Below are positions 20,962 to 30,405 of a stretch of DNA of 64,000 nucleotides, one piece after another. Below the pieces are notes generated by a model that saw only the letters and a list, made by a program, of their open reading frames with translations, did not search any database and had not been told where the DNA came from. Position numbers and translations under genes: made by a program. The stretch lies in the sequence record PX436236.1. One strand, given 5' to 3'. This DNA is from a phage. Each line of letters opens with the position of its first letter. Positions within the stretch are counted from its first letter, which is position 1.

Positions 20962-21275
20962 CTCTTAGATTTAATTTTATCCAGTTCTTCTTGTATTTGC
21001 ATTGTAACACATTTTTCTACATGAAGCGCTAGCTCTTCTTTTCGGTCTTCGGAAGGTGTTCCGAAATCAACCGACACTTTTCCATCTTTCTCAATAACAA
21101 TATTCATCACATAAACGATGTGAGCAGTGCCATCGGGTAAAGTAAGCATAATTTCCTGCTTAACAGAACCCATTGACTTACGGATTATATCTAATGATTT
21201 CTCATAATAACGAGGGTCACTAGGACCCTCTTCGGTATCTTTAACGAAATTATCTAAATCAGATAAATCAGTCAT
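20946..21275 (-). CDS. hypothetical protein, 109 aa (gene 40 position)
   Basis: ORF between uvsX and gene 41; position only. Confidence 0.45.
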   Translation of the reverse strand: MTDLSDLDNFVKDTEEGPSDPRYYEKSLDIIRKSMGSVKQEIMLTLPDGTAHIVYVMNIVIEKDGKVSVDFGTPSEDRKEELALHVEKCVTMQIQEELDKIKSKRWWKW

Positions 21276-22440
21276 CTAAATTCATCTCTTCCAAATCGTT
21301 TTCGATATCAGCGGCGCTTTGGGCATTACCACCTAATTTAACAGCAACGTTCTTAGAGACACGAGAGTTAATAAGGTCGTTCACTGCATCGTCAACTTCT
21401 TTAATAGAATTAATTGCACCGAGCTTATACTTATTCTCGATTGCTTCACGGAACGGGGCATGTTTAAACAGCGGTCCCCAGAACTCGACACAATCGGTAG
21501 CTTTAGCACGCCATGCTTTTTCTTCTTGAACCATTTCGCCTGTGGTTTCGTCAAGGAATGCACGATTATACCAGCCGGCTTTAGGTTTCACGACAAAGCC
21601 AATATCAGTAGCCATTTCAAGCAATCCACTGAATGGGTCGATACCACCTTCGAAGTTCACTGTAATCGGGAACGTTGATTTCTCTTTAACCGTACGAGAT
21701 TTCTCGGCCTTCAGTGTGAAGTCATAACCAGTGAGCTCAGTACCATCTTTAACCTGACGTTTAGAGATAAAGAACACGGTAGAAGCAGAGTACAGAATAC
21801 CAGTACCACCACCCATAATCTCTTTAGGGTACATTCCACCAATTTCCATAGCCGTGTGGTTAATTGCTACACAAGGGATATCTTTGATGGTCAGATAAGG
21901 TGTTACGATACGGAACAGAGATTTCAGTGATTTAGCACGAGTCATATCACCTACAACTTTCTCGTTCAAAGCATCTTCGGTTTCTTTCTTAGAAGCAGTG
22001 TTACCAATGGAGTCGATAAAGATAATAACCTTTTCGCCACGAGTAATTTCTTCTAACTGGTTGGTCATATCAACTTTAAGCTGTTCGACTGACTGGATTG
22101 GTGTATGAACCACACGTTCCAAATCAACACCCATCGAACGGAAATAAGATTCTGAAGCACCAAACTCAGAGTCATAGAACAAACAAATTGCGTCTGGATA
22201 TTTCTTCATATATGCCGCAACCATGGTAAGTCCAAACAACGTTTTAAAGTGTTTAGATGGAGCAGCAAAGATTGTCAAACCTGATTGTAAGCCTGCATTC
22301 AACGCACCGCCTAATGCAATATTCAGCATAGGGATACGAGTAGGAACTTCGTCACGACCATTAAACAATTTAGATTTGGTCAGGTCGGCGGTCATTTTAG
22401 AAGTAGAAGCTTTAATCAAACGGGATTTTAAATCAGACAT
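21268..22440 (-). CDS. uvsX: UvsX recombinase (RecA-like), 390 aa
   Basis: N-terminus MSDLKSRLIKASTSK is near-identical to T4 UvsX. Confidence 0.92.
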   Translation of the reverse strand: MSDLKSRLIKASTSKMTADLTKSKLFNGRDEVPTRIPMLNIALGGALNAGLQSGLTIFAAPSKHFKTLFGLTMVAAYMKKYPDAICLFYDSEFGASESYFRSMGVDLERVVHTPIQSVEQLKVDMTNQLEEITRGEKVIIFIDSIGNTASKKETEDALNEKVVGDMTRAKSLKSLFRIVTPYLTIKDIPCVAINHTAMEIGGMYPKEIMGGGTGILYSASTVFFISKRQVKDGTELTGYDFTLKAEKSRTVKEKSTFPITVNFEGGIDPFSGLLEMATDIGFVVKPKAGWYNRAFLDETTGEMVQEEKAWRAKATDCVEFWGPLFKHAPFREAIENKYKLGAINSIKEVDDAVNDLINSRVSKNVAVKLGGNAQSAADIENDLEEMNLDD

Positions 22441-22480
22441 TATATTTTTCCATAGGCATCATTATATTTTACTCACGTTT

Positions 22481-22513
22481 TAAGATAGGGTAATTATATC
22501 ACTTCACATTTAC
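22481..22513 (-). promoter_or_regulatory. Promoter with extended -10 (TGATATAAT) and TACCCTATC box upstream of uvsX
   Basis: Variant of the repeated cassette; -35 element unclear. Confidence 0.35.
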
Positions 22514-22517
22514 AGCG

Positions 22518-23411
22518 TTAAAGGACCACGTCCTCATAACTTGGCATTTCGTGCTCAGAATGGATATGGGCACCGAAATAAATGAATTCAGCTAGACCAG
22601 GATGGAATACTAAACCGGGATTCTCATGATAAATGATATGAGGTCTTGATTTCAGAATCTGATAATATTCAACCTTACTCGGTTTGAATTTAATAATCTC
22701 TACATCAGGACGATAGTCTTCACGCTTAAATGAATCATTCGGATCGGTGATATAAAGGCGAGAACCTTCAGCCGCAGCTTGGTCTACAACTCTTTCGAAT
22801 TGATAACATTTATCAGAGATACGGAATGGATGGAAAATACCATCAATTTTAATAGGCGCTAGACCTTCAGAGTAACGCTCAATTACTGCAGGATTAATTA
22901 CCTTTTGGTCTACAAAAATCTTATCAGAGGATGCACCTCGTGACACCAGGACGTCTTTCTGACATTGATTCAAGACCGTAGTATAAATCGAACGTTCAAC
23001 TGAACCCACGTCGGTATCAATAAACTCATCGATGTAATAACGAGGAACTTCAGGGTCCATTGTAATGTTAAAGTTGAATTGTACGGTATGAGCACCATCA
23101 TAACCTGTGATATCGGTTACCAATCCTGAGCAGTCATAGTATTCGATTAACGAATCAACAACGAACTCATTTTCAGACCAAAAATGTTTACGAGTTTCAT
23201 AAGCATTTTCTTTATACCAAAGAGGTACAAAATTCAGTTCAGGAAATAATTCAATGCATTCTTTGATATCGCTCGAATTTCTAGGATAAGCCAGATAATC
23301 ACCTGGGCAAGCACGGTTTAAATGGAGTTGAAAATTGCCGTCCTTAAGGACGGCATATTCACCTGTTTCGTAACTACGCATACTGAAAATAGGAACGATA
23401 AACAAACTCAT
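22518..23411 (-). CDS. protein of unknown function, 297 aa, occupying the T4 beta-glucosyltransferase slot
   Basis: No resemblance to remembered T4 beta-gt; its start overlaps the gene 42 stop by 4 nt. Confidence 0.6.
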   Translation of the reverse strand: MSLFIVPIFSMRSYETGEYAVLKDGNFQLHLNRACPGDYLAYPRNSSDIKECIELFPELNFVPLWYKENAYETRKHFWSENEFVVDSLIEYYDCSGLVTDITGYDGAHTVQFNFNITMDPEVPRYYIDEFIDTDVGSVERSIYTTVLNQCQKDVLVSRGASSDKIFVDQKVINPAVIERYSEGLAPIKIDGIFHPFRISDKCYQFERVVDQAAAEGSRLYITDPNDSFKREDYRPDVEIIKFKPSKVEYYQILKSRPHIIYHENPGLVFHPGLAEFIYFGAHIHSEHEMPSYEDVVL

Positions 23412-24106
23412 TTCAGGAATCCTCGAACGTAGTCAAAATCACGTTCAAATACGTGTGCACTAACCATAGTATGGGAATACGTACCCAGACCAACACCACA
23501 CTGTTCAGCAATAAAGGCCATCAGTTTACCCTGCAGATAGAAATCCAGCTGCATAACAATAGCACAGTTCTGTGAACGCATATGGGTATGTGCATAAAGA
23601 CGTCCATCACGAATATAATATGTCACCGAATCGGTACATGGGTATTCTAAGGATTCGTCAGAATCAAGGAGGGCTTGGTCTTGTTCTTGGAGAATTTGGA
23701 ACACAACTCGTCTCGAGTTAGGCTTTTCTTTAAGCTCTTTAAGTAAGGCTGGGAGTTGGGCCACAATTCGAGGTCCATAGAAAGTGTTGAAGTTTGCAGG
23801 CAATACGTCACTTTTCGGCTTATCAATGAACTTAGCAACATTAGGATATTCCTTAAATGCTTCGGCAGCATCAGTACCACCGGAAATCATAAACTTCCAA
23901 AAGGATTCGGCATAATCATAGTTGATACGATTAATACGAGGGTCGGTGAATTTATAGGTGCTTGCATCCAGTACTTCTACCGAAGCAGAACCAATTTCAT
24001 AACAACGGCCGATACGAGAATCAACTGCAAACTGTGGAGCTTCCAGGATTTCTTCGTTCATTTGCTTAAACGCGTTTTCAAAACTAACAGCGGTAATGTG
24101 TTTCAT
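23408..24106 (-). CDS. 42: dCMP hydroxymethylase gp42 (thymidylate synthase fold), 232 aa
   Basis: PNSRRVVFQ...YPCTDSVTYYIRDG...MRSQN...QLDFY aligns to T4 gp42 and has Asp at the cytosine-specificity position. Confidence 0.8.
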   Translation of the reverse strand: MKHITAVSFENAFKQMNEEILEAPQFAVDSRIGRCYEIGSASVEVLDASTYKFTDPRINRINYDYAESFWKFMISGGTDAAEAFKEYPNVAKFIDKPKSDVLPANFNTFYGPRIVAQLPALLKELKEKPNSRRVVFQILQEQDQALLDSDESLEYPCTDSVTYYIRDGRLYAHTHMRSQNCAIVMQLDFYLQGKLMAFIAEQCGVGLGTYSHTMVSAHVFERDFDYVRGFLK

Positions 24107-24639
24107 TTATTCACCTTATTTTCAATATATTCATTCAGACGTTTTAATTCTACCATATCGACGTTAAGCAAGTTATTATGGCCGTCGTGATTTAAGATTT
24201 TAAACACGTTTTCAAAACATGTTTCGTATTGGCGGATAGTTAGGTTGAACTCATCTTTGGTTAATTTAATAAGGTCATCTTCAAAGTCTTTATCCAGTGG
24301 ATTACGGGTTAAAATAATCTCAATGATATTGAATTCTTTTTTGAAATCAATCCAATCTTCTAGTTCTACATAAGGGTCCATTTCACCACGAAGGAATCCA
24401 GAGTAAACAATATTACTAGGATACCCACGGTCTAAGATGTAGACAAAATTAGGGTCTAAAAACTTATACAACGTCTCGACTAAAGCCTTGTCATTATCAG
24501 TCCCTAATGAAATGCATTTGCCATTAATCTTTTTAGGGAAATCAATAAGACGATATTTCTTATCAGATAAAAGTGATTCAATTAAAGTAGACTTCCCGGA
24601 ATTATCCGGGCCGTCGATAACAATGATTTTTGGTTTCAC
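24103..24639 (-). CDS. P-loop kinase, 178 aa
   Basis: Walker A IIVIDGPDNSGKST at the N-terminus; stop overlaps the gene 42 start by 4 nt. Confidence 0.65.
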   Translation of the reverse strand: MKPKIIVIDGPDNSGKSTLIESLLSDKKYRLIDFPKKINGKCISLGTDNDKALVETLYKFLDPNFVYILDRGYPSNIVYSGFLRGEMDPYVELEDWIDFKKEFNIIEIILTRNPLDKDFEDDLIKLTKDEFNLTIRQYETCFENVFKILNHDGHNNLLNVDMVELKRLNEYIENKVNK

Positions 24640-25034
24640 GGATGATATGCCTTATAGGTTTCAAGAGTTCCCTCACGAACCATTTCTTTAAAGTGGTCAG
24701 GACGGATTGCTCGGTCATCGATGATAAAAGTATAACTCGGCTTATGTGTAAGCAGATTGTGATATTTCAATCCAATCTTTTCAAGGTTCTTAACTAATGC
24801 AGGAACTACTTCAACCAAGATTCGACCTGGGCCGCATGAAGTCATACCACGGGCAGTGAACAAGGTAATCTCGTACCCTTCATCATAAAGCTTATTAATC
24901 ATGGACACCATTTCGGTGTCCGGTTTAAAGTTTTCGTAATCACGGTCATGGTTCCAAATCGTGATTGTGTTATCGATGTCAAAACATAAATGAGGCTTAT
25001 TTTCTACTCGATGTGACATTAAATTTTCTTCCAT
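24636..25034 (-). CDS. HAD-superfamily phosphatase, 132 aa
   Basis: Motifs FDIDNTIT, TLFTAR and IIDDR, similar in pattern to the T4 polynucleotide kinase phosphatase domain. Confidence 0.6.
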   Translation of the reverse strand: MEENLMSHRVENKPHLCFDIDNTITIWNHDRDYENFKPDTEMVSMINKLYDEGYEITLFTARGMTSCGPGRILVEVVPALVKNLEKIGLKYHNLLTHKPSYTFIIDDRAIRPDHFKEMVREGTLETYKAYHP

Positions 25035-26692
25035 TGTTTGTGGAGTTCAGTAGAACCTGTAGGTTTATATTTTACACCAGTTTCTTGGTCAAGCAAAACC
25101 CACTTATCAGGACAACGAGTGATAATTTGAGCCGTGATAGGGTCGCGAACTTCATCAACGAATTCACCTGTGATAAGCTTACGCTTACGAGGATGTCGCT
25201 TCAGCAGCACACTCAGTTGGTACAAACCGTTGTAATAAGCACCCAGAGCTTTCAGAGGGTTATTTTTAAAGTAACCTGCCAATGCCATCCAGATAACAGC
25301 AATCCAGAGCTTGTGCTTAAATGTACACATTGGAATATCATCTAAAGGCATAACCTTTTCAATATCAACGAATACACGAGTTCCGTTACGAGTTAAGCCA
25401 CCCCATAGAGGGTCAGAGTTAAATTTGTCATAACCATCGATAGAATAAAGCACCTTAGCTTCATCATAAATCGCAGGGCCTTTAGAACTATTACCAAAAT
25501 AACCACGTGGGTCGATGATTTTAATATTACCTTCGTCCGACAACATAATATTACTGTAGTGCGGGTCGCCATGAATAAGTTGGTACGGTTCTTTATGTTC
25601 AGACAGAATTTCTAAGGCGTGACGAAGAAGTTTTTCTGGGTCGCCTACCTTGAAGTCGTTAACATGGGTAATACCCTGTGGAGCAAAGCCTTCAATCAAT
25701 CCGGCAATAGAAGCATTACGAATAAGGACCTTGTCCAATACTTCTTTCTTAACATCAGAATACCATTGCTCATCGGACGGATTATCGATAGTTCCACCGA
25801 ACGAACGTAATGCACTAATAACCTTATAAACCATTAGGACTTTAGTTTCTTTAGACATAAACCGGTAGGCATCTGCCATGGTTCGACCAAAGATACGTTC
25901 CATTTTAATGAATTCGCCTGGAGCAAAGTCTACAATGCTAGGAACGAATTCGGAATCAATAGAATTATACCAATTGATTTCTTTAGATTGGATTTCTTTA
26001 CCCAATTCGTTAGTTGGTACTTTAATAGCTAGATTCTCGGTGAACTCTAATTTATTAAATTCACGGTTAATTTCAGAATCTTCATGCGCCTTAGCCAGTT
26101 TCAGTTTGTCACCAACATCAACTACAAAGTCTAACTTACGTTCAGTCAAATGGACCATTGAATCCAGGTTGTCAGCAAGGTCTTCACCATAATTAGAACG
26201 GTCGAAACCTGTCCAATTAGCCACCTGATACAAGCCAACTACGCCACCACCGGTACCAATTTCACGCAAGTACGGTTCTTCAAATGTAAAACGACAGTCA
26301 GTCCCATAGGTATAACAGTAGTCGTTATCCCACTCAACTTTATGACCTTCAGGAATAATATCACACCAGTTAAACAAGACATTGTGCCCAATGATATCTT
26401 CGGCAATGCAATCGATAGCATGAGCCGAACCATTGGCAACATCAACGTTACGAATAGTGAATTTAGGCTTATCACTATTAATCATGTTAATGGATTTAAT
26501 ATAGCCTTTAACGAGGTCGTTAAATTTGCTGTGAATAACCAGAATAATTTCATCTGATTGATTACTATACAAATCATACAAATGTTTTAATACAGTATGT
26601 TGTTTGTAGTTAACCAGTACCTTCGGGATTTCGTTGGTAATTGGATACAACCGTGAGCCAAGACCCGCGCCTAAAATAACAACCTTTTTCAT
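25019..26692 (-). CDS. bifunctional nucleotidyltransferase (N-terminal) / APH-choline-kinase-like kinase (C-terminal), 557 aa
   Basis: N-terminal VVILGAGLGSRLYPIT...KVLV signature; C-terminal HGDPHYSNIM...IIDPRG; start set at MKKVV, preceded by GAGGAA. Confidence 0.65.
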   Translation of the reverse strand: MKKVVILGAGLGSRLYPITNEIPKVLVNYKQHTVLKHLYDLYSNQSDEIILVIHSKFNDLVKGYIKSINMINSDKPKFTIRNVDVANGSAHAIDCIAEDIIGHNVLFNWCDIIPEGHKVEWDNDYCYTYGTDCRFTFEEPYLREIGTGGGVVGLYQVANWTGFDRSNYGEDLADNLDSMVHLTERKLDFVVDVGDKLKLAKAHEDSEINREFNKLEFTENLAIKVPTNELGKEIQSKEINWYNSIDSEFVPSIVDFAPGEFIKMERIFGRTMADAYRFMSKETKVLMVYKVISALRSFGGTIDNPSDEQWYSDVKKEVLDKVLIRNASIAGLIEGFAPQGITHVNDFKVGDPEKLLRHALEILSEHKEPYQLIHGDPHYSNIMLSDEGNIKIIDPRGYFGNSSKGPAIYDEAKVLYSIDGYDKFNSDPLWGGLTRNGTRVFVDIEKVMPLDDIPMCTFKHKLWIAVIWMALAGYFKNNPLKALGAYYNGLYQLSVLLKRHPRKRKLITGEFVDEVRDPITAQIITRCPDKWVLLDQETGVKYKPTGSTELHKQWKKI

Positions 26693-26752
26693 TATCTGTT
26701 CCTCAAGTGAATGTAGGTACATTATACACTATTTTTAATAAATTGGTATTGC

Positions 26753-27253
26753 TTAAATCTTATCTTTACCGATTTCAATACACTGTTCTATTGCCGCCGG
26801 TGCTTTGGTCTTGAGCTTATCGATTTGTTTCTTATAATCACGAGCTTTACCGAAGCTCTCGGTTTCGAGCATTTCGTAATAACGAGCCTCGTGGATGGAA
26901 ATCTGTAGATTGATATGGTTTACGCACATCGCATACAGTTTCTGCTTTTTGTACAAATCATCTTGACGCTTCATTTCTGCCTGGTGTTTGGCTAGTACCG
27001 CTTCACGCTTGGACTCTTGTTCACGTTGGAATTCGATTTCTTGTTGAGCATATTTTGCACAGTTATTACCGCATTGATTATTAGCTCGGGTGTACACAAG
27101 TCCAGAACCTGCACGGAATTTCATTTCGCCATCGAATTGTTTCTGTTCAGCTGCGATACGAGCTTTACCAACTTCATCAGCCGAAACTGCATCACCATAT
27201 TGGACCGCGCAACCTGATAGGAGCATACTCATTGCGATAATTAACTTTTTCAT
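26753..27253 (-). CDS. lipoprotein, 166 aa
   Basis: Signal peptide with lipobox LLSGC; coiled-coil-like remainder. Confidence 0.55.
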   Translation of the reverse strand: MKKLIIAMSMLLSGCAVQYGDAVSADEVGKARIAAEQKQFDGEMKFRAGSGLVYTRANNQCGNNCAKYAQQEIEFQREQESKREAVLAKHQAEMKRQDDLYKKQKLYAMCVNHINLQISIHEARYYEMLETESFGKARDYKKQIDKLKTKAPAAIEQCIEIGKDKI

Positions 27254-27260
27254 AATATCC

Positions 27261-27398
27261 TCAATTAAAACAGTTATACTTAATTTGTGCTATAAGAATA
27301 ATCCATCCAATGATGAGTGTCGGAATCATTGGCGGAATTGCCACTGCCCAATAAATGGTAAAGGCGGTCATTATAAGAAATAAAATAATTATTTTCAT
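27261..27398 (-). CDS. possible small membrane protein, 45 aa
   Basis: Own translation MKIIILFLIMTAFTIYWAVAIPPMIPTLIIGWIILIAQIKYNCFN; ATG overlaps the upstream stop. Confidence 0.35.
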   Translation of the reverse strand: MKIIILFLIMTAFTIYWAVAIPPMIPTLIIGWIILIAQIKYNCFN

Positions 27399-27631
27399 TG
27401 CTTAACAATAATGATTTGTGCGTTTGATTTACGTTCAGCGACGATAGCCCAGATTAAAGCCACTACCCAACCAATCATCGTCCAGCCTAACAGGAGATTA
27501 AGGAAGAAAATTCCGACATTACTACGAGTGCCTCGCAGAAGAGCCAGAATCCATGGTAAAAAGTAACCGATGAACATAATAACCAGAGAACCGAATCCTA
27601 AAACACCAGCACTAACGATTAAAGCTTCCAT
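27395..27631 (-). CDS. two-TM membrane protein, 78 aa, candidate Imm (immunity to superinfection)
   Basis: Hydrophobic two-helix protein directly upstream of the operon, the position of T4 imm. Confidence 0.5.
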   Translation of the reverse strand: MEALIVSAGVLGFGSLVIMFIGYFLPWILALLRGTRSNVGIFFLNLLLGWTMIGWVVALIWAIVAERKSNAQIIIVKQ

Positions 27632-27648
27632 TGTAATTTCCTCATGTA

Positions 27649-27691
27649 GTTGATAGGAAGGATACTACCACGTTCCTTGTGGTATGTAAAC
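27649..27691 (-). promoter_or_regulatory. Early-promoter cassette
   Basis: GTTTAC, spacer, TAGTAT, CCTTCCTATCAAC, then GAGGAAA RBS. Confidence 0.5.
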
Positions 27692-27693
27692 AC

Positions 27694-30405
27694 TTAAAAG
27701 TCGAACATATCAAATAATGTTGCTTTTTTCTCGTAGTCGATTTTAGCAGACTCAGTAAAACCGGTCAGAGGTTTGATAAAGGTCTTTTGGAACAGTACGT
27801 TGTAGTCCATCCAACGGAGGACTTGGTCACGAATCTGAACCGGAAGTTCAATACCTGACGGCCATGCCATACAAGCTTCACCAAACGGGTTGCCTTCTTT
27901 AAGTGGCAGTACATATACCTTTTCACCATCAACGATACGAGGCATAGTCAAATCACCTGCAGAAGCACGCATGTAAGCTAAGCAACCTTTGATGTGGTAT
28001 GGACATTTAGAACCCGGGAATCCACCTTCATTATATTTCTCGATGTTGTTAGCACTGGATACTGCTGCAATGCTTACATAATCGAGTTCGTTAAATTCCT
28101 TATTAAACTGTTTGAAATATTCTTGCAAAGATGCCTCGCCTTCCTGAAGCATACGACGGATACATTCCTTCAGAGCTTTCTGAACTGCTTTAGGTGTACT
28201 TGATTTCTGAGTTTCGAGACCCATGATTTTCAAGTGTGGTTCAGCATAACGAGTACCTTCCATGTCCCAAACGTTAAGTGCATAACGTTTCTTGCCTGTC
28301 CAGAATCCACCAAGACCTTTAGAACCAAGTGGAGGACCTGCGATAGCTTCTCGGTCCATGAACATCAAGTGTTGTTTGTTGTTCATGTATTCGCACATCT
28401 CACGGAAGCCTGCATCAATAGCTGGTTCCATACGTTCACGTGCAAATTTATCTAAGAAGTCGACCCAGTGGTTAGTATCACGGAATTTGTCTTCGCCTAC
28501 TTTATTGATGATTGCATCCGCCTTAACATAAATGGAGTCAGTATCACCATAGAGCACGAACTTCTGATTTTCAGTCTTACACACGCTATTCAGATATTCG
28601 TTAACCTTACGTTCAATCCATTGGAGGGCCATTTGACCAAACAGTGTGATTGCAGTTGCGTTCCTGAGGTCGTAATAACGGAACCATACGTTACCAAGTG
28701 CACCATAAAGGGAGTTGATAAGCAACTTACGGTTAATCTGAGCAGTCATACCTGCAACTTCGGTACGTTCAGCTCTGAACAACATTTCTCTTAAAGAAGG
28801 TGCTGACAGCGTTTTAATCTTGGCTTTGATTTCGTCAGAGAAGTCAAAACGATAATCGATATCCAGTGGACTATCAGCCGAGAGATTAGGATTTTCTAAT
28901 GCTTCTTTAATTAACTCACCATTACGTTGAGCTGCAAGCATATAACCTTTATGTTCTTTACGTTGTAAGAACACCTTAGTGATTTCTGTAGGAATCACAC
29001 CATCGCGGTCTTTATAGTACATCATGCCGTTAGGAGAGCAACTGTAGACGTCGCTAGGACGCGGAGCTGTTCCGGCAATATATTCATGTATCGGTGCGTT
29101 AGCGAATGTCCCTGCGATGGTCTCTGGGCTTATATTCACTTGTCGAATGATACTCGGGTACAGAGATGTAAGGTCGAAACTCATTACATATTTGTAAGCG
29201 TTAGGAATAGGTTCCTTAACGAAAGCACCGGGATAAGGTTGAACCACGTGTGAACGAGCTTGTGGAATTACCTTGCCTTGCTCTTTAAGGCTATTAAAGA
29301 TAATAGCGTCCCAAGTCTTAATTGGACTGAACACCGACTGAATCTGCATCTTGGCATAATAACCCATGTCCAAACTCAGAAGAATGAACTGACGCTTCAT
29401 ATCAATCTGCACTACACGATATACGTCGATAATATTATAGGAAATATATCGTTGGTGGTTCGTCTCACGTAACTTGGAGATTGGACCATCATATTTCAAC
29501 TTACCTACTTTCAATTCATATTCAGAAACATAATCCAGAGAATAAGAAGGCTGGTTGGTGAAGCTGAATTTTTTATAGAGGTCGATATAATCCAGAACAG
29601 AGATGCCGAACAAAGTAATGATTTCACGAGCACCGTACATGTTCTCGATAACTTTAACACGAGTTTTACGATGTGGGCTTAATCGCTTAGCAGTGTTCTC
29701 ACCGAACAGATTTTTCAGACGGTTATAAACGTACGGCACGTCAAATGATTCAACGTTCCATCCAGTCAAAATCACAGGAGTTTTCTGTTGCCAGAAATTC
29801 AAGTACTCAAGCATCATTTCTTCTTCAGAATTAAACGGAAGATAAACGATTTTGCCAATGATTTCCTGTGGAACTTCGTCACCACCTTCGTCTTGGAGTT
29901 TCTCAGCGATTTTAATCGACCACTCTTCAACAGTACCATAAGGCGAAACTAAAAGGTCGAATACATAGAATTTATCGTCAATCGAGTCGTAGTGGGTAAT
30001 GGCATCGATAGGATGTTTAGCCTGAGCTGGTTCAGGGAATCCATCAGGAGATGTTACCTCGATGTCGAAGTTAGCAATACGAATCTTAGAAGAATCATAT
30101 TTGATTTCTTTACGATAGGTATCAGACAAATAGGCTAATTTATAGTCGTCCATACCCAGGGCTTCGAGGCCCATATCATCCATACGTTTCATCCATTGGG
30201 ATGCATCACGCATAGAGTCGAATTCTTTCTTAACACAACCCTTACCATAGATATCAATGTATTTTACGGCTTGCTCTGGATTAGCATGCATAAACATTGT
30301 AGGCTTGTATGGAACTTCACGACTACGTTCGTTACCATTTTTATCGATGTAACGTTCGAGAATATTATCACCGATTTGTTCGACTGTCAAATAGAATTCT
30401 TGCAT
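27694..30405 (-). CDS. 43: DNA polymerase gp43 (family B), 903 aa
   Basis: Start set at MQEFYLTVEQIG (T4 begins MKEFYISIETVG) with AAGGAAA RBS; exonuclease and polymerase motifs including YGDTDS. Confidence 0.92.
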   Translation of the reverse strand: MQEFYLTVEQIGDNILERYIDKNGNERSREVPYKPTMFMHANPEQAVKYIDIYGKGCVKKEFDSMRDASQWMKRMDDMGLEALGMDDYKLAYLSDTYRKEIKYDSSKIRIANFDIEVTSPDGFPEPAQAKHPIDAITHYDSIDDKFYVFDLLVSPYGTVEEWSIKIAEKLQDEGGDEVPQEIIGKIVYLPFNSEEEMMLEYLNFWQQKTPVILTGWNVESFDVPYVYNRLKNLFGENTAKRLSPHRKTRVKVIENMYGAREIITLFGISVLDYIDLYKKFSFTNQPSYSLDYVSEYELKVGKLKYDGPISKLRETNHQRYISYNIIDVYRVVQIDMKRQFILLSLDMGYYAKMQIQSVFSPIKTWDAIIFNSLKEQGKVIPQARSHVVQPYPGAFVKEPIPNAYKYVMSFDLTSLYPSIIRQVNISPETIAGTFANAPIHEYIAGTAPRPSDVYSCSPNGMMYYKDRDGVIPTEITKVFLQRKEHKGYMLAAQRNGELIKEALENPNLSADSPLDIDYRFDFSDEIKAKIKTLSAPSLREMLFRAERTEVAGMTAQINRKLLINSLYGALGNVWFRYYDLRNATAITLFGQMALQWIERKVNEYLNSVCKTENQKFVLYGDTDSIYVKADAIINKVGEDKFRDTNHWVDFLDKFARERMEPAIDAGFREMCEYMNNKQHLMFMDREAIAGPPLGSKGLGGFWTGKKRYALNVWDMEGTRYAEPHLKIMGLETQKSSTPKAVQKALKECIRRMLQEGEASLQEYFKQFNKEFNELDYVSIAAVSSANNIEKYNEGGFPGSKCPYHIKGCLAYMRASAGDLTMPRIVDGEKVYVLPLKEGNPFGEACMAWPSGIELPVQIRDQVLRWMDYNVLFQKTFIKPLTGFTESAKIDYEKKATLFDMFDF

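Follow-up and report, generated by a model that had tools for sequence, protein, structure and literature searches.

The 64,000-nucleotide stretch of phage DNA studied here (sequence record PX436236.1; termed the window) carries on its minus strand a gene in which a nucleotidyltransferase is joined to a small-molecule kinase, and the question raised by this locus is what such a protein would activate, and for what use. The window was found to come from a Dhakavirus of the WG01/QL01/JS98 group; over the 5.3 kb around the gene, Escherichia phages WG01, LHE83 and QL01 matched it at 98% identity and Bp7 at 96%, all of them belonging to the genus Dhakavirus. The gene product combines two folds with intact catalytic residues, is homologous over its full length to AfhE, and is encoded in a conserved gene context. 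On these comparisons the gene is very probably the ortholog, in Dhakavirus, of AfhE, which activates the sugar in the DNA-hypermodification pathway leading to arabinosyl-5-hydroxycytosine. The gene and its parts are as follows.

25019..26692, minus strand: AfhE homolog, 557-residue nucleotidyltransferase/kinase (open reading frame plus Pfam; stop codon TAA at 25021..25019)
26078..26692, minus strand: N-terminal domain, residues 1–205, sugar-1-phosphate nucleotidyltransferase fold (Pfam, profile and Foldseek)
25202..26077, minus strand: kinase domain, residues 206–497, APH/choline-kinase (eukaryotic-like kinase) fold
25022..25201, minus strand: C-terminal tail of ~60 residues, 498–557, with the pattern TK.P.KW.L.D.ETG..Y.P...W

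The initial annotation had assigned the N-terminal half to the nucleotidyltransferases and the C-terminal half to the APH/choline-kinase fold, and had proposed a domain search as a check. When this search was run, Pfam placed both halves above cut-off in the folds named (NTP_transferase PF00483 at 34.3 bits, cut-off 21.2; APH at 26.0 bits, cut-off 23.2), and the motifs that had been quoted were located at residues 4–19, 374–383 and 392–397. Active-site residues were examined in a 28-sequence alignment of the family (31–81% identity). The invariant residues of the N-terminal half were G10, R14, L15, P17, P23, K24, D111, D192 and D195, which make up the pyrophosphorylase signature loop (G-x-G-x-R-L...P-K), the lysine and the acidic metal-binding residues. 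In the kinase half K224, E238, H374-G375-D376, N381 and D394 were invariant, corresponding to the beta-3 lysine, the helix-C glutamate, the catalytic loop (H-x-D-x4-N) and the metal-binding Asp (IDPRG).

Comparison of the family profile with the PDB gave HddC as the best sequence match of the N-terminal domain (1.8e-12), followed by LicC (8e-11), and Foldseek placed this domain beside MurU (4y7t, TMt 0.69), RmlA, GalU and HddC, the top structural matches all being pyrophosphorylases. The N-terminal domain alone was detectable in the PDB sequence searches, which returned no solved AfhE structure; the kinase half reached E values of only ~0.05, to RIO and other protein kinases, so that fold comparison was needed. 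Its structural neighbours included methylthioribose kinase, NahK, maltokinase, LicA (4r77) and choline kinases. Both fold assignments were therefore borne out, each by its Pfam score, its fold matches and its invariant residues. The C-terminal tail is kept in Straboviridae-type members of the alignment and absent from a distant jumbo-phage-type group, and its block-mean predicted local distance difference test scores (pLDDT) were lower, at 69–86. By homology, the N-terminal domain would act as a UDP-arabinofuranose pyrophosphorylase and the C-terminal domain as a D-arabinose-5-phosphate 1-kinase.

The relationship to AfhE was studied by way of Escherichia phage HY126, which was reached through PDB entry 9iqu (sequence 100% identical to HY126 PP658200.1) and whose locus was then compared with the window. 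The window protein and HY126 AfhE were found to be 43% identical end to end (557 and 562 residues, E 7e-144) and collinear, with the same order of nucleotidyltransferase, kinase and C-terminal tail. Identity to RB69 gp52:53 was 41–44%, and PHROG 4098 matched the window protein over its full length (E 5.5e-269). Together, RB69 gp52:53 and DLP3 gp82 are full-length fusion homologs at 41–45% identity that have the same neighbours, namely MurU (4y7t) and LicC (1jyk) for the N-terminal domain and APH (3ham) and glucosamine kinase (6hwl) for the C-terminal domain. In HY126, as in the window, the stop of the afhE gene overlaps the gene for AfhF by 1 nt, and the pair lies between gp43 and uvsX alongside a 5-hydroxy-dCMP (5hodCMP) synthase and a glycosyltransferase. 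The features expected of the AfhE family were thus found: full-length collinear homology, both folds with intact catalytic residues, and genomic linkage to an overlapping AfhF-type phosphatase (64% identical to that of HY126), a 5hodCMP synthase (79%) and an arabinosyltransferase (67%). An accompanying phage isomerase with a SIS domain is common in the family and was not found here, being probably accessory rather than defining.

This family is already known, having been predicted in 2018 and characterised in 2025–2026, and Dhakaviruses are part of the published synteny. Arabinose was detected in the DNA of RB69 by Thomas et al. (2018), who proposed that RB69 ORF53_52c, which is a single 561-residue protein after correction of a sequencing error, makes UDP-arabinose together with the isomerase ORF055c; gp43 of phage IME08 was described in the same work as a full-length homolog of ORF53_52c. 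The IME08 protein is 99.3% identical to the window AfhE homolog. The DNA of RB69 and of Acinetobacter phage DLP3 was shown chemically to contain mono- to tri-arabinosylated 5-hydroxycytosine (Lee et al. NAR 2026, PMC13326640), the arabinosyl-5-hydroxy-dC nucleoside having m/z 376. The same study demonstrates that 5-hydroxy-dCMP is made by the thymidylate-synthase homolog, gives a predicted function for RB69 gp52:53 and DLP3 gp82, and names Dhakaviruses among the lineages with a syntenic cluster. Lee et al. cite He et al. (Nat Chem Biol 2026) and Mahler et al. (Cell Host Microbe 2025), and relate from He et al. that the AfhE kinase makes arabinose-1,5-bisphosphate, that AfhE has pyrophosphorylase activity too, and that AfhF is a Mg-dependent phosphatase converting the 1,5-bisphosphate to the 1-phosphate before the nucleotidyltransferase acts.

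The fusion had been described in the initial annotation as unusual for a T4-like replication region. This did not hold, as it was found in 368 phage records and in hundreds of clusters at 50% identity, and the slot between gp43 and uvsX is a known variable region for DNA-modification genes in T4-like phages (Thomas 2018; PMC8056088). The proposal that one polypeptide could both phosphorylate and nucleotidylate a small molecule stands, while the idea that the two activities follow one another directly does not, because the HAD phosphatase step intervenes in the characterised homolog, according to the account of He et al. in Lee et al. (PMC13326640).

Five minus-strand genes, overlapping by 1 or 4 nt and with the AfhE homolog first, lie between uvsX (21268..22440) and imm/gp43. 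The four that follow the AfhE homolog are listed here.

24636..25019, minus strand: AfhF homolog, 127-residue HAD phosphatase with a DIDNT motif (alternative ATG at 25034)
24103..24639, minus strand: P-loop nucleotide kinase of thymidylate-kinase type, 178 residues (phrog_761 at 2e-39)
23408..24106, minus strand: thymidylate-synthase homolog, 232 residues, putative 5-hydroxy-dCMP synthase (HY126/RB69 homology)
22518..23411, minus strand: homolog of the first DNA arabinosyltransferase, 297 residues (phrog_3891; no Pfam match)

The ATG of the HAD phosphatase gene shares one base with the stop of the AfhE homolog (TAATG, the final A of TAA). This phosphatase is 64% identical to HY126 AfhF and 62% identical to RB69 gp51, and it matched the capsule-biosynthesis phosphatase model TIGR01689 at 1.1e-14, which is below the cut-off of that model. 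In RefSeq it is called 'phosphoheptose isomerase' (WG01 BOW89_gp045), after PHROG 1238; since the DxDxT HAD motif is present and an isomerase domain is absent, the label appears to be a propagated mis-annotation. The P-loop kinase starts with GTG, overlaps both adjoining genes by 4 nt and is 37% identical to RB69 gp45. Such a kinase was common to all arabinosylation clusters examined, and in the window it lies between the synthase and the phosphatase rather than beside uvsX. To convert 5hodCMP to the diphosphate, Lee et al. (PMC13326640) used a dNMP kinase of the gp1 type, which is a separate enzyme.

The thymidylate-synthase homolog shares 78.8% identity with RB69 gp48, for which synthesis of 5hodCMP has been demonstrated by experiment (Lee et al. 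PMC13326640), and 79% with its crystallised counterpart from HY126 (PDB 9iqu/9iqc/9ir2, E 1.5e-125), which is flavin-bound according to the same authors. In RefSeq it is annotated as 'thymidylate synthase', and in at least one record as dCMP hydroxymethylase. On alignment the Asp of MRAND in MilA corresponds to an Asn in the window protein (MRSQN). The position of this Asn we take to be that of D169 in E. coli ThyA. If so, the window protein carries the 'D169N' signature described by Lee et al. (PMC13326640). The 297-residue protein is 67% identical to its HY126 counterpart and 64–70% identical to RB69 gp46:47, which is the predicted arabinosyltransferase 1 of Lee et al. (PMC13326640).

The interpretation that best fits these data is that the operon likely serves to supply UDP-arabinofuranose for arabinosyl-5-hydroxycytosine DNA. 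Ribulose 5-phosphate would be converted to D-arabinose 5-phosphate by the host isomerases KdsD/GutQ, which are invoked because this lineage carries no phage-encoded isomerase. The C-terminal APH-fold kinase, with ATP, would then phosphorylate the anomeric C1 hydroxyl group to give arabinofuranose 1,5-bisphosphate, the translationally coupled HAD phosphatase would strip the 5-phosphate to leave arabinofuranose 1-phosphate, and the N-terminal RmlA/MurU-like domain would use UTP to form UDP-arabinofuranose and pyrophosphate. The 297-residue glycosyltransferase could add arabinose to 5-hydroxycytosine in replicated DNA, the modified base being provided by 5-hydroxy-dCMP from the putative synthase of the operon. 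DNA modified in this way would be expected to resist host nucleases.

The same enzyme and the same product would also fit another order of events, in which the HAD phosphatase acts first to give free arabinose, the kinase makes arabinose 1-phosphate and the nucleotidyltransferase follows. This is the order given in Table 1 of Lee et al. (PMC13326640) for RB69 gp51/gp52:53 and DLP3 gp81/82, and methylthioribose kinase, NahK and maltokinase, all neighbours by fold, act on unphosphorylated sugars. The text of Lee et al., however, adopts the bisphosphate route from HY126 biochemistry, and that route mirrors the heptose pathways (7-phosphate to 1,7-bisphosphate to 1-phosphate), from which the best PDB sequence match, HddC, comes. 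We consider the phosphatase-first order unlikely. Note that 5-methylthioribose kinase, NahK and maltokinase, which are APH-fold anomeric sugar kinases, differ from the window kinase in being stand-alone proteins for non-phosphorylated sugars and are 9–14% identical to it.

The likeness to the ADP- and GDP-heptose pathways (GmhA, HldE/HddA, GmhB, HldE/HddC) lies in the succession of a SIS isomerase, an anomeric kinase that turns a sugar phosphate into a bisphosphate, a HAD phosphatase and a nucleotidyltransferase. HldE, too, joins its kinase and nucleotidyltransferase in a single chain; the fold is that of ribokinase/PfkB in the HldE kinase and GHMP in HddA, and the adenylyltransferase domain of HldE is cytidylyltransferase-like with a HIGH motif. 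The window protein, with an APH/choline-kinase-fold kinase and an RmlA/MurU-fold nucleotidyltransferase, is not of the HldE type and shares with it the pathway logic alone. The sugars differ as well, that of the window being a pentofuranose, and the product would go to DNA rather than to lipopolysaccharide or capsule.

Similar fold pairings raise the possibility that the protein is a salvage enzyme acting on host envelope metabolism, either of the LicA/LicC type (choline or ethanolamine) or of the AmgK/MurU type (N-acetylmuramic acid). In both systems an APH-fold small-molecule kinase is paired with an RmlA-like nucleotidyltransferase, and LicC (1jyk), LicA (4r77), choline kinases and MurU (4y7t) were among the best structural or sequence matches. 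These matches are at the level of the fold only, at 10–21% identity. In AmgK/MurU and LicA/LicC, unlike the window system, the kinase product feeds the transferase directly without a phosphatase step, the proteins are usually separate, and the substrates and cellular role are unrelated to those of the window enzyme; the folds of the LicA/LicC type are present in the window, and the choline-gene context with direct use of the product is not. Further, the gene is translationally coupled within a DNA-modification operon, SIS sugar-phosphate isomerases and HAD phosphatases recur among its relatives as fusion partners or neighbours, and the WG01 genome annotation lists no choline transferase, transporter or lic-type gene. 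A salvage role is hardly credible on this evidence, and the choline and ethanolamine put forward in the initial annotation as candidate substrates give way to D-arabinose 5-phosphate and UTP, to which the gene context points.

It was also considered whether the N-terminal GT-A-like domain could itself be the DNA glycosyltransferase, as was suggested for TH1_060 of Shewanella phage Thanatos, which is 44% identical to the window protein. The domain is placed by CDD in the superfamily of glycosyltransferase family A (Thomas et al. 2018), and TH1_060, which is essential for phage propagation, was regarded by the Thanatos authors as a candidate transferase. TH1_060 failed to glycosylate DNA in vitro, however, and for the window protein the G-x-G-x-R-L...PK pyrophosphorylase signature is invariant, the leading structural matches are without exception pyrophosphorylases, the operon itself encodes a dedicated glycosyltransferase, and AfhE is reported by Lee et al. 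(PMC13326640) to have pyrophosphorylase activity. The chance that this domain transfers the sugar to DNA is accordingly very remote.

Several observations count against the assignment of the window gene as an AfhE ortholog with the arabinose function. The protein is far more diverged than its neighbours, at 43% identity to HY126 AfhE versus 64–79% for the adjoining genes, and its clade sits on a long branch. In the literature found, DNA chemistry is described for Mosigvirus, Acinetobacter and Serratia phages and none for Dhakavirus. Phage arabinose-5-phosphate isomerase, the usual companion of AfhE in most other lineages, is absent, the HY126 AfhE/AfhF biochemistry is second hand through Lee et al. 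(PMC13326640), and purified TH1_060 gave no nucleoside-diphosphate (NDP) sugar from xylose-1-phosphate, although this is not the expected substrate. A placement of Bas46 in Dhakavirus, which would have brought chemical data, was tested and found no support; Bas47 is a Mosigvirus.

The divergence, seen as a long branch in both domains, together with the gene content of the window and the lack of Dhakavirus DNA chemistry in the literature found, could mean that the Dhaka/Marfa-clade enzyme has shifted to a different pentose phosphate or nucleoside triphosphate, giving a modification other than arabinosyl-5-hydroxycytosine. With tblastn, RB69 gp55 (arabinose-5-phosphate isomerase) had no match in the window at E ≤ 10, no isomerase is annotated in the complete WG01 genome, and the window lacks homologs of the U32-peptidase-like gp50, of gp49 and of the second arabinosyltransferase gp3 of RB69. 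Set against this, of 173 alignment columns that the main Straboviridae group conserves, 145 (84%) are unchanged in the Dhaka clade, and at the N-terminal differences A12G, T13S, E85V, Y91H and N150G the clade has the residue of the distant homologs, a group that is itself linked to SIS isomerases; there is thus no positive sign of functional change. A search for catalytic or broadly conserved positions changed uniquely in the clade found none. The glycosyltransferase and HAD phosphatase, moreover, are close orthologs of arabinose-pathway proteins, and E. coli has KdsD and GutQ, which supply arabinose 5-phosphate (Thomas 2018), so that the substrate probably comes from the host. A shift in specificity is very unlikely in our view. 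In neighbour-joining trees of each domain the Dhaka clade fell on its long branch within the main Straboviridae group, and separate origins of the two domains were rejected on this placement.

The absence of the isomerase was also followed across the phage collection, where an isomerase was found in 276 records versus 368 for an AfhE homolog. Klebsiella phages account for 25 AfhE records and are missing from the ten most frequent organism names of the isomerase list, while Escherichia/Enterobacteria records are 45 fewer for the isomerase, near a rough count of Dhakavirus records with such names. When positions 22518–27253 of the window are compared with the RB69 and HY126 loci, the Dhakavirus cluster is a minimal five-gene version, without the isomerase, the U32-peptidase-like gene and the small open reading frames and with the nucleotide kinase elsewhere in the gene order. 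RB69 and DLP3 have two or three arabinosyltransferases and their DNA chemistry has been shown, whereas the window phage has one candidate transferase; we therefore predict that Dhakavirus DNA carries mono-arabinosylated 5-hydroxycytosine only. A more far-reaching proposal, that the Dhaka/Marfa/Providencia-phage lineage runs a stripped-down five-gene pathway in which the long-branch AfhE may have an altered sugar or nucleotide specificity, is quite unlikely. If it were true, common coliphages would carry an undescribed cytosine modification or would depend strictly on host KdsD/GutQ, the latter being an exploitable host dependency.

The spread of the family was also examined. Among 1.84 billion representatives at 50% identity, 818 proteins matched at E ≤ 1e-3, 378 at E ≤ 1e-10 and 77 at E ≤ 1e-30, and most of the library matches listed spanned both domains; the nucleotidyltransferase–kinase fusion is thus a sizeable, already described family. 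Further fusions were of three kinds, SIS–nucleotidyltransferase–kinase (P0130 and P0178), HAD–nucleotidyltransferase–kinase (P0168 and P0180) and HAD–SIS–nucleotidyltransferase–kinase (P0068, P0093, P0131 and P0140), and Butyrivibrio homologs fused to a SIS domain have been described (Thomas et al. 2018). These fusions to SIS and HAD domains offer independent support for the pathway logic. P0068, P0074, P0093, P0131 and P0140 are single chains of 922–1011 residues that combine HAD, SIS isomerase, nucleotidyltransferase and APH-like kinase, and such chains hold the whole route from ribulose 5-phosphate to NDP-arabinose. P0068 itself (L008:10001-12775) is encoded on a 23.7-kb, AT-rich contig with GT25, GT11, GT2 and GT1 glycosyltransferases around it, and these neighbours suggest that it helps to make glycans, possibly in a giant virus, and not to modify DNA. 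On a 315-kb jumbo-phage-like contig a SIS gene lies directly upstream of a 32%-identical homolog (L010:7297-9665), and in Sphingomonas phage PAU the isomerase gp212 is near the AfhE homolog gp215; the isomerase–AfhE pairing therefore reaches far beyond T4-like phages.

Phage DNA with arabinosylated 5-hydroxycytosine is shielded from restriction enzymes and from CRISPR nucleases and is exposed to type IV systems, which matters when therapeutic phages are chosen and when phages are engineered. The window protein is 100% identical to those of WG01 and QL01 and 98.4–99.8% identical across ~50 Dhakavirus records, and in all Dhakavirus records listed, including several phage-therapy candidates, it is labelled 'hypothetical protein'. 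A practical outcome is that both this protein and its HAD partner, the so-called 'phosphoheptose isomerase', can now be named, and the lineage-specific predictions are modification by a single arabinose and reliance on host arabinose-5-phosphate isomerases. A PADLOC scan of five proteins (AfhE homolog, HAD phosphatase, P-loop kinase, glycosyltransferase and a 166-residue open reading frame) gave nothing meaningful, and an NCBIfam scan gave sub-threshold, family-level matches only.

As mechanically called, the open reading frame of the AfhE homolog covers 25019..26722 on the minus strand (567 residues). A start at 26692, the one chosen in the initial annotation, gives the 557-residue protein beginning MKKVVILGAG, and the WG01 annotation uses the same start, which is preceded by the following element.

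26700..26704, minus strand: Shine-Dalgarno sequence GAGGA, 7 nt upstream of the ATG at 26692 (read from the sequence)

A TATAAT hexamer overlaps the in-frame ATG that lies farther upstream. Across 22300–27750, a sigma-70 promoter scan gave 18 sites versus 17.6 in shuffled sequence and a terminator scan gave 3 versus 4.2; as these counts are no higher than in shuffled sequence, no promoter is claimed beyond noting the hexamer. Finally, the 166-residue open reading frame (26753–27253, minus strand; phrog_1754, unknown function) has a lipoprotein-type signal, MKKLIIAMSMLLSGC, and lies in the interval from the AfhE homolog to imm that the isomerase occupies in RB69 and HY126.

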